Positions 45,900 through 46,149 of a DNA stretch of 64,000 bases are shown here, in pieces; positions within the stretch are counted from its first letter, which is position 1; each line of letters opens with the position of its first letter. The DNA comes from Dehalococcoidia bacterium. Its GTDB lineage: Bacteria > Chloroflexota > Dehalococcoidia > UBA2979. A program made the translations under genes and the position numbers. The DNA lies in NCBI GenBank assembly GCA_965219085.1, contig OZ244720.1, positions 3,232,001 to 3,296,000 on the forward strand, read 5' to 3'. The notes beneath the pieces are model-generated. The model was not told the DNA's origin. It saw only the letters and a program-made list of their open reading frames with translations, and searched no databases.

Positions 45900-46149
45900 C
45901 GTGTTTCAGTTCCTCTCCCGCTTCGCGCTGCTCGGTGCGACCCGGCGGGTTGGTTCCTGCGACGGCCTAATGGATCAGTGCTCGATGGCACGACACCCCA
46001 TGAGTGCTGCAGAACAACCCGGAATACCAGCAGGGGCTCGGTCTTCGTGAAGCGGTCCAGAAGCCGCAGGGATCAGCTGAGAGCTCACCGGCTGGCAGGG
46101 TCCAGAACCAGTCTGCCAGAGAACCTCTGGCCGCTGGTCGGGCCCCATT
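45900..46149 (-). ncRNA. Predicted bridge RNA of the IS110 element
   Basis: Target loop CTGATCCCT / CACGAAG around a GCGG/CCGC stem; donor loop GGGGTGTC / CCATTAG around a GTGC/GCAC stem; exact RNA ends unknown. Confidence 0.85.

Follow-up and report, generated by a model that had tools for sequence, protein, structure and literature searches.

A recently active IS110-family insertion sequence with a putative IS621-type bridge RNA inserts into an IS5-family transposase gene of a Dehalococcoidia bacterium

RNA guidance has been shown experimentally in the IS110 family of insertion sequences, for which a bridge RNA was described by Durrant et al. 2024 from IS621 and the IS110 group (PMC11208160; structures 8wt6-8wt9). 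According to that account, the RNA opens with a 5′ stem-loop, followed by a target loop that varies and a donor loop that is conserved; the core takes part in all four guide pairings, and the natural target of IS621 tolerates a wobble (rG:dT at target position 4). For the IS1111 group, RNA-guided DEDD transposases that insert site-specifically with the help of a seekRNA have been reported (Siddiquee et al. 2024, PMC11187229). Here we describe an IS110-family element, designated B, within a window of 64,000 nucleotides (positions 3,232,001 to 3,296,000 of contig OZ244720.1, assembly GCA_965219085.1) from the genome of a Dehalococcoidia bacterium, which is assembled as one contig of 3.31 Mb with a G+C content of 69.8%. 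An earlier interpretation made from the letters of this window and their open reading frames (ORFs), called the sequence-only reading hereafter, had placed a complete bridge RNA in the left end of B. We put the probability that the minus-strand interval 46149-44654 is a recently active IS110-family insertion sequence with an IS621-type bridge RNA encoded in its left end, made up of 5′ stem-loop, target loop and donor loop, at about 0.9.

Direct reading of the two junctions of B gave CCGACCC-CT-AATGG on the left and GGGGTGT-CT-TCGTG on the right, and together these readings yield a target of CCGACCC-CT-TCGTG and a circle junction of GGGGTGT-CT-AATGG, exactly as the sequence-only reading had claimed. 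The dinucleotide CT flanks B on both sides with no other duplication, and intact relatives of the IS5-family element in which B lies run uninterrupted across the site. Two non-coding ends were delimited, a left end of 250 nt upstream of the recombinase gene and a right end of 22 nt (44654-44675). All four guides were found on the minus strand at the coordinates previously assigned to them (Table 1), each matching the element's own junctions. The left target guide (LTG) is read as CTGATCCCT at 46076-46068, next to a stem of GCGG (46067-46064) and CCGC (46055-46052), and agrees with the left target half (LT) plus core at seven of nine positions, the two exceptions being LT positions 2 and 5, where U faces G. 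The left donor guide (LDG) is read as GGGGTGTC at 45999-45992, next to a stem of GTGC (45991-45988) and GCAC (45981-45978), and fits the circle junction at eight of nine positions, its final base being G against the T of the core in B and in all 77 relatives considered below. The span originally proposed for the RNA took in the guides and their hairpins correctly and left out the 5′ stem-loop (46138-46107), which is part of the same RNA.

Relatives of B were collected by a recombinase protein search of one-genome-per-species contigs, from which the best 80 of 251 related stretches were kept (L001-L080), nearly all of them from Dehalococcoidia metagenome-assembled genomes and a few from Actinomycetota. 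After removal of one locus with its gene cut at a contig end (L063) and two with no recognisable left end (L028 and L042), 77 loci were used. Common to these are the start AATGGG, a donor loop of the form GGG(G/A)UGUCG...CCAUUAG and the right end GGG(G/A)TGT-CT; L077 and L078 carry GC-T instead of CT ahead of AATGGG, the right donor guide (RDG) is constant except for TCATTAG in the L014 group, and a single LDG mismatch was seen in L080. The donor side varies together with its own right end as well, the LDG GGGAUGUC accompanying right ends of GGGATGT in L070-L076. The two sides of the target loop, LTG and the right target guide (RTG), differ between groups, each matching the flanks of its own element. 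In the L052 group the left flank CAACAACCT equals the LTG CAACAACCT and the right flank CTACGT is paired with the RTG ACGTAG; in the L075 group the left flank GTCAGCCT equals the LTG GTCAGCCT and the right flank CTAGACG is paired with CGTCTAG; in the L076 group the left flank TGAGAACCT equals the LTG TGAGAACCT; and in the L045 group the right flank CTACAAC is paired with GTTGTAG. Over the 17 guide groups with both flanks the mean was 9.76 of 12 non-core matches, compared with 4.70 across 264 cross-group pairings, and none of 10,000 permutations reached the observed mean, figures that overstate independence because the relatives are kin.

Most relatives of B are hosted by a GC-rich palindromic repeat (..CCCCTCACCCCCGCC-CT-CTCCC..loop..GGGAGAGGG..) that occurs at many places in their genomes; under a strict pattern, 27 of 72 right flanks begin CTCTCCC-loop-GGGAGAG. 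The same repeat has no copy in the genome studied here. With about 20 target-guide variants mounted on one conserved donor loop, and with recombinases that are 66-86% identical, the relatives form a natural retargeting series, in which bridge RNAs have been redirected from palindromic repeats to a transposase ORF. A relative in the same genome as B (82.6% identical, genome positions 893433-894622) was considered as an internal control for covariation; it has lost its left end and was unusable.

The structure of the predicted RNA was assessed by aligning 28 distinct left ends. RNAalifold recovered the outer stem of the target loop, its capping hairpin and the donor hairpin, with 8 of 38 predicted pairs keeping their pairing through two-sided changes. 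When the structure was written from B itself, 89.8% of 969 cells were paired, compared with 27-48% when the partners were slid, and 12 of 35 pairs were altered on both sides; the covariation score was 0.230 against 0.147 for shuffles, none of 500 scoring as high. Helices 4-6, which belong to the target loop, are 99-100% paired in the 28 sequences, including five pairs changed on both sides, and the inner hairpin of the donor loop is invariant in all 28. The outer helix of the 5′ stem-loop is 94% paired and its inner helices, which lie in a gap-rich part of the alignment and include double changes, are 63-77% paired. Covariance folding with homologous left ends had been proposed in the sequence-only reading as a check, and the compensatory stem changes found here, together with the covariation of guides and flanks in homologs, bear it out.

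The product of the recombinase gene contains the Pfam domains DEDD_Tnp_IS110 (PF01548, 128.4 bits) and Transposase_20 (PF02371, 43.5 bits), and scores 191.6 bits against the NCBIfam model NF033542, 'IS110 family RNA-guided transposase', for which the cut-off is 140. It aligns over both domains with the IS621 transposase (8wt6_A, E 5.6e-8), and the D of YLGDD, the D..D of KSDAGDA and the S of VASG in the recombinase of B are aligned to IS621 residues. The only significant Rfam hit is to Ms_AS-4 (RF02464; 63.9 bits, gathering 50, E 1.4e-8) at window positions 44994-45075 (+), antisense inside the recombinase gene where that gene encodes the conserved Transposase_20 part; the hit may reflect either a genuine antisense RNA or conserved coding sequence that the model happens to recognise.

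The genome contains six copies of B that are 99.87-100% identical, and five of the six occupy the same site in the transposase ORF of an IS5-family element of approximately 1.3 kb. The transposase of an intact copy of this element (L081) is 358 aa long and reaches 254 bits with the NCBIfam model transpos_IS5_4 (cut-off 140), in agreement with the earlier claim that the natural target lies inside an IS5 transposase ORF, and in its frame the site of B falls at ...L-Y-T-K / G-S-G-Q... Measured against the host copy in the window, two host copies show identities of 95.4% and 89.5% in the middle piece, and two show 97.8% and 94.7% in the N-terminal piece. Since identical inserts of B stand in differing IS5 hosts, at least three independent insertions have taken place, and B is a recently active IS110-family insertion sequence. 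Occupancy of the IS5 sites sorts perfectly by target sequence (5/5 versus 0/8): the site CCGACCCCTTCGTG is occupied in five of five cases, CCGCTCCCTTTGTG (T-K-G-A) in none of seven and CCGAACCCTTCTTG in the single case not. In a same-genus genome (G350) the exact target is present and empty; the search of that genome returned only 83%-identical relatives of B, with loci at the same coordinates (L055-L062) carrying a different LTG. B with this guide was absent from the other genomes searched, namely 26 of the family and 5 of the genus. Between IS5 subfamilies, 3 of 14 bases differ at the site of B, compared with 36 of 738 in two flanking pieces (hand count); because this comparison was made post hoc, the excess (binomial tail ~0.03) is a hint of survivorship and not evidence of escape.

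The G run at the right end of B (window 44654-44660) is five long in two of the copies and four in the other four. DNA sequencing runs X1 and X5, which may come from the source sample, tile B without differences except for a one-base length change in this run near 44657, X1 showing the shorter form. The length difference, which could be real or an assembly error, moves the spacer of the promoter proposed below from 19 to 18 nt. An X1 contig that joins across the position of B represents an IS5 variant without B.

A working scheme for B can be proposed from the published IS621 mechanism. B would excise as a circle, and the joining of its right and left ends would bring TTGACC 18-19 nt upstream of TCTAAT, a putative promoter from which both bridge RNA and recombinase would be transcribed. 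In the complex of recombinase and RNA, the LDG GGGGUGUC and the RDG CCAUUAG would hold both strands of the circle junction GGGGTGT-CT-AATGG, and strand exchange would take place at the CT core. In 76 of 77 right ends TTGACN overlaps the stop codon and stands 17-19 nt ahead of TCTAAT, the junction hexamer, which arises only on joining right end, core and left end; as judged from these motifs, a circle-junction promoter would fit the circle-specific promoter described for the family.

Several observations weigh against this interpretation of B, in addition to the kinship of the relatives. The proposed -10 hexamer TCTAAT has a C at the normally invariant position 2, for which reason we infer rather than assert the promoter; the promoter rules of this phylum may differ. 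A scan of integrated B gave no sigma-70-like site, and no circle-junction joint is listed among the contigs of the sequencing runs. The metatranscriptome runs X21 and X22 hold only contigs of relatives, which are 90-95% alike and have other LTG bases, and one such RNA-run contig extends into flanking DNA, with DNA carry-over being possible. Folded on its own, the left end of B gave z = -0.27, and 75 of 200 shuffles did equally well; as the single-sequence fold lends no support, the structure rests on the alignment. No Rfam 15 family matched the left end at E <= 1. Poor LT fits were encountered in L027 (2/9), L045/L046 (3/9) and L050/L051 (3/9), the last two probably because of a one-base register shift. 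The sixth copy of B (L082, genome positions 166286-167777) lies off target, with an LT of GGGATCT that matches the guide at four of seven positions, a perfect right half TCGTG and flanking ORFs without a Pfam match; it resembles a half-matched off-target insertion described for IS621 (10.64898/2026.08.31.748434). Finally, the genome contains no guide-perfect site at zero or one mismatch, and its 16 other sites at two mismatches are all empty, none of them in IS5.

The two mismatches of the LTG deserve separate consideration. Codon arithmetic by hand confirmed that both are of the U·G type and fall on the last base of a Gly codon (GGG) and of a Ser codon (TCG), where a change from G to A is synonymous in either case. 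Third codon positions make up 4 of the 12 non-core guide positions, so both mismatches would fall there by chance in 6 of 66 placements (~0.09, hand count). A mismatch spectrum was compiled over LT positions 1-7 from 44 unique guide/site combinations, 5 of 49 having been left out (L071 and L072, left flank missing; L027, L045 and L050, at most 3/9 LT matches). The commonest non-core LT mismatch family-wide is guide U facing target G (33 of 72), non-coding palindromic targets included. Of the 75 guide U cells, 26 face T, which is the exact match, 33 face C, 9 face A and 7 face G; the exact matches of the other guide bases are 146/155 for C, 45/54 for G and 19/24 for A. LT positions 1 to 5 have 15, 11, 17, 9 and 18 mismatches, against one each at positions 6 and 7. 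In several relatives one and the same guide U stands opposite C in some targets and T in others, as with CCUCGCCC(U/A) at position 3. The mismatch pattern of B is thus ordinary for its lineage, and the two LTG uridines that face G would form tolerated rU·dG wobble pairs.

Guide-perfect IS5 sites, which the sequence-only reading had proposed to look for, were sought with patterns that require the surrounding Y-T-K-G-S/A-G-Q-T codons, more diverged IS5 relatives being outside their scope. A degenerate pattern found 8 IS5-context sites in 401 class genomes, seven in the present genome and one in a same-genus genome, of which seven read GGA GCG and one GGG TCG, and none was guide-perfect (GGA TCA). 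In JGI metagenome contigs a pattern allowing GGR TCR gave a single match, of the GGG TCG type and not guide-perfect. The Gly codon among IS5 relatives is GGG, GGA in seven intact copies of this genome, or GGT in a copy near 342053. The GGA of the other IS5 subfamily in the genome is a Watson-Crick match for guide U5, and a guide U that reads A or G at the Gly position would cover both known variants (GGG and GGA).

Three other explanations of the guides were weighed. It is very improbable that the complementarities are incidental and the left end merely a 5′ untranslated region with protein-recognised ends, the protein alone picking the site: the RNA contigs do come from relatives only, with none of this copy, and the single-sequence fold is unremarkable, but the covariation of guides with flanks in 17 groups exceeded every permutation, the stems show compensatory changes, and B belongs to a family in which RNA guidance has been demonstrated by experiment (PMC11208160). 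The sequence-only reading had gone further and supposed that the guide tracks protein-coding variants of IS5, that is, that it was shaped on, or kept matched to, synonymous variants (ACG AAG GGA TCA) of a coding target that drifts only at third positions. The synonymous third-position placement of both mismatches, the variable Gly codon (GGG, GGA, GGT) and the pairing of GGA with U5 speak for this, but the chance of such placement is ~0.09, U facing G also dominates at the non-coding targets of relatives, LT positions 1-5 are mismatch-tolerant throughout the family, and neither a TCA variant nor a guide-perfect 14-mer was found in the genome, the 401 class genomes or the metagenome match; we therefore regard the claim as unsupported and its truth as improbable.

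A further explanation, which we consider unlikely, holds that the IS5 site is the best near-cognate site available here, the guide having evolved elsewhere, on CTGATCC-CT-TCGTG or a sequence like it (perhaps a repeat of a former host), before transfer. It would account for a genome in which no site comes closer than two mismatches to the guide-perfect 14-mer and the palindromic repeat used by most relatives has no copy, and for the lack of B with this guide in the 26 family and 5 genus genomes searched; the off-target copy, and the half-matched insertion reported for IS621, fit it as well. Against it, five of six copies lie in an identical IS5 site and reflect at least three independent events, whereas the 16 other two-mismatch sites are all empty; the IS5 mismatches are wobble-compatible, while the empty sites carry, by inspection, non-wobble mismatches. 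A recently active IS110-family insertion sequence guided by an IS621-type bridge RNA remains our preferred reading of B.

Table 1. Features of element B and its IS5-family host element in the window (coordinates are window positions).
Feature	Position	Strand	Basis or remark
IS110-family element B, 1496 bp	44654..46149	minus	Span between both CT core copies
Left core CT	46150..46151	minus	Read at left junction; before AATGGG in 75/77 related loci
Right core CT	44652..44653	minus	Right junction; relatives show GGG(G/A)(T/A)GT-CT ends
Left target half LT, CCGACCC	46152..46158	minus	IS5 codons GGG TCG G on plus strand
Right target half RT, TCGTG	44647..44651	minus	IS5 codons ..C ACG A on plus strand
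5′ stem-loop (ACCAG..GCCAGAG GTT CTCTGGC..CTGGT)	46107..46138	minus	Alignment pairing; present in single-sequence fold too
Target-binding loop module: outer stem, internal loop with LTG and RTG, capping hairpin	46027..46095	minus	Pairing in 28 sequences
LTG CUGAUCCCU, left target guide, two core-binding bases included	46068..46076	minus	Varies; matches left flanks in relatives
RTG CACGAAG, right target guide	46043..46049	minus	7/7 complement of CTTCGTG; covaries with right flanks
Donor-binding loop module: outer stem, internal loop with LDG and RDG, capping hairpin GTGC/GCAC	45957..46012	minus	Alignment
LDG GGGGUGUC, left donor guide	45992..45999	minus	Matches circle junction
RDG CCAUUAG, right donor guide	45967..45973	minus	7/7 complement of CT-AATGG
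Recombinase gene, 407 aa	44676..45899	minus	Pfam, NCBIfam and IS621 matches
TTGACC overlapping stop codon, proposed -35	44674..44679	minus	Promoter would be completed only in circle, 18-19 nt to TCTAAT
Host IS5-family element	42432..46771	plus	Three pieces (42432-42983, 44522-44651, 46152-46771) split by elements A and B

A second IS110-family element, A (window 42984-44521, +), is nested in the same IS5 copy as B and encodes a 362-aa transposase that scores 238 bits against NF033542. It is inserted between the IS5 codons ..L K S and Y R.. with a core of AG, and its ends ATGGCATGAGGG and CCCTCATAGA form subterminal inverted repeats. Its right end of 340 nt includes a guide-like region (44290-44330) in which TCAAGAG is identical to the left flank and CGGTAGC is complementary to the right one, and these guide-like segments covary with the flanks in diverged relatives within this genome. 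Three IS5::A::B composites are present (window 42432-46771; genome 1202024-1206364 and 1799389-1805368), with IS5 parts that are ~99.5-100% identical, different genomic flanks and intact IS5 inverted repeats. Given near-identical IS5 parts between differing flanks, the broken IS5 has probably moved together with both passengers, which suggests that it was mobilised as a unit by the transposase of intact IS5 copies (hitch-hiking). Two B-bearing IS5 copies have received further insertions, one (genome 3090783-3092145; L084 2684-4046) of an IS256-family element (343.8 bits) and the other (genome 1803545-1805176; L122) of a segment with a 522-aa ORF. Adjoining IS5 in the window is an IS481-type transposase ORF (46794-47768, -) with rve, HTH and LZ_Tnp_IS481 domains and near-identical copies elsewhere in the genome, and the region is thus a nest of insertion sequences.

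In this uncultured high-GC lineage the IS5 element serves as a landing pad for two distinct RNA-guided insertion sequences, and this case of IS5, B and A offers a small, tractable mobile-element conflict. A tentative, rather doubtful extension is that guide uridines act as purine-degenerate readers (A by Watson-Crick pairing, G by wobble), such that one guide could hit polymorphic multi-copy targets and tolerate synonymous drift of the GGR/TCR type, which together with element A would amount to RNA-guided parasitism between insertion sequences. If true, the parasites would disrupt IS5 copies of the matching lineage and be carried along by them, and only copies with a mismatched site would stay intact. 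The mismatch rule seen here (LT positions 1-5, the U-faces-G class) can be tested for off-target prediction and guide design.

Compared with IS621, B has the same arrangement of a recombinase with DEDD and Tnp domains and a predicted RNA encoded in the left end upstream of the gene, a variable first (target) loop and a conserved second (donor) loop, a CT core represented in all four guides, a right end with a -35-like box and a natural target whose mismatches would be tolerated as wobbles. In contrast to IS621 as published, the protein of B is only distantly similar (E 5.6e-8) and its host is a high-GC genome of the class Dehalococcoidia, the target lies inside a transposase ORF and not in a REP element, two putative wobbles of the rU·dG type occur, the RTG is 7 nt long, and the last LDG base mismatches the core T in every family member. 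A guide located downstream of the gene, and inverted repeats in subterminal position, are IS1111 features seen in element A, which is like IS1111 and its seekRNA in both respects, and not in B; as the guides of B lie upstream of its gene and no subterminal inverted repeats were noticed, B is of the IS110 type and not of the IS1111 type. Elements with multi-copy landing sites spread without hitting host genes, and B likewise uses a multi-copy sequence; its landing site is IS5 transposase coding sequence, so that each insertion breaks the IS5 copy concerned. In the literature searched we found no report of an IS110 element that targets an IS5 ORF; the natural target motifs of Supplementary Data 2 (PMC11208160) may bear on the point. 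Apart from the putative circle-junction promoter, all sequence-testable defining features of an IS110 bridge-RNA system are present in B, which is a further example of the mechanism described in 2024 and not a new mechanism, and its class of target, another mobile element, is unusual though not unprecedented.

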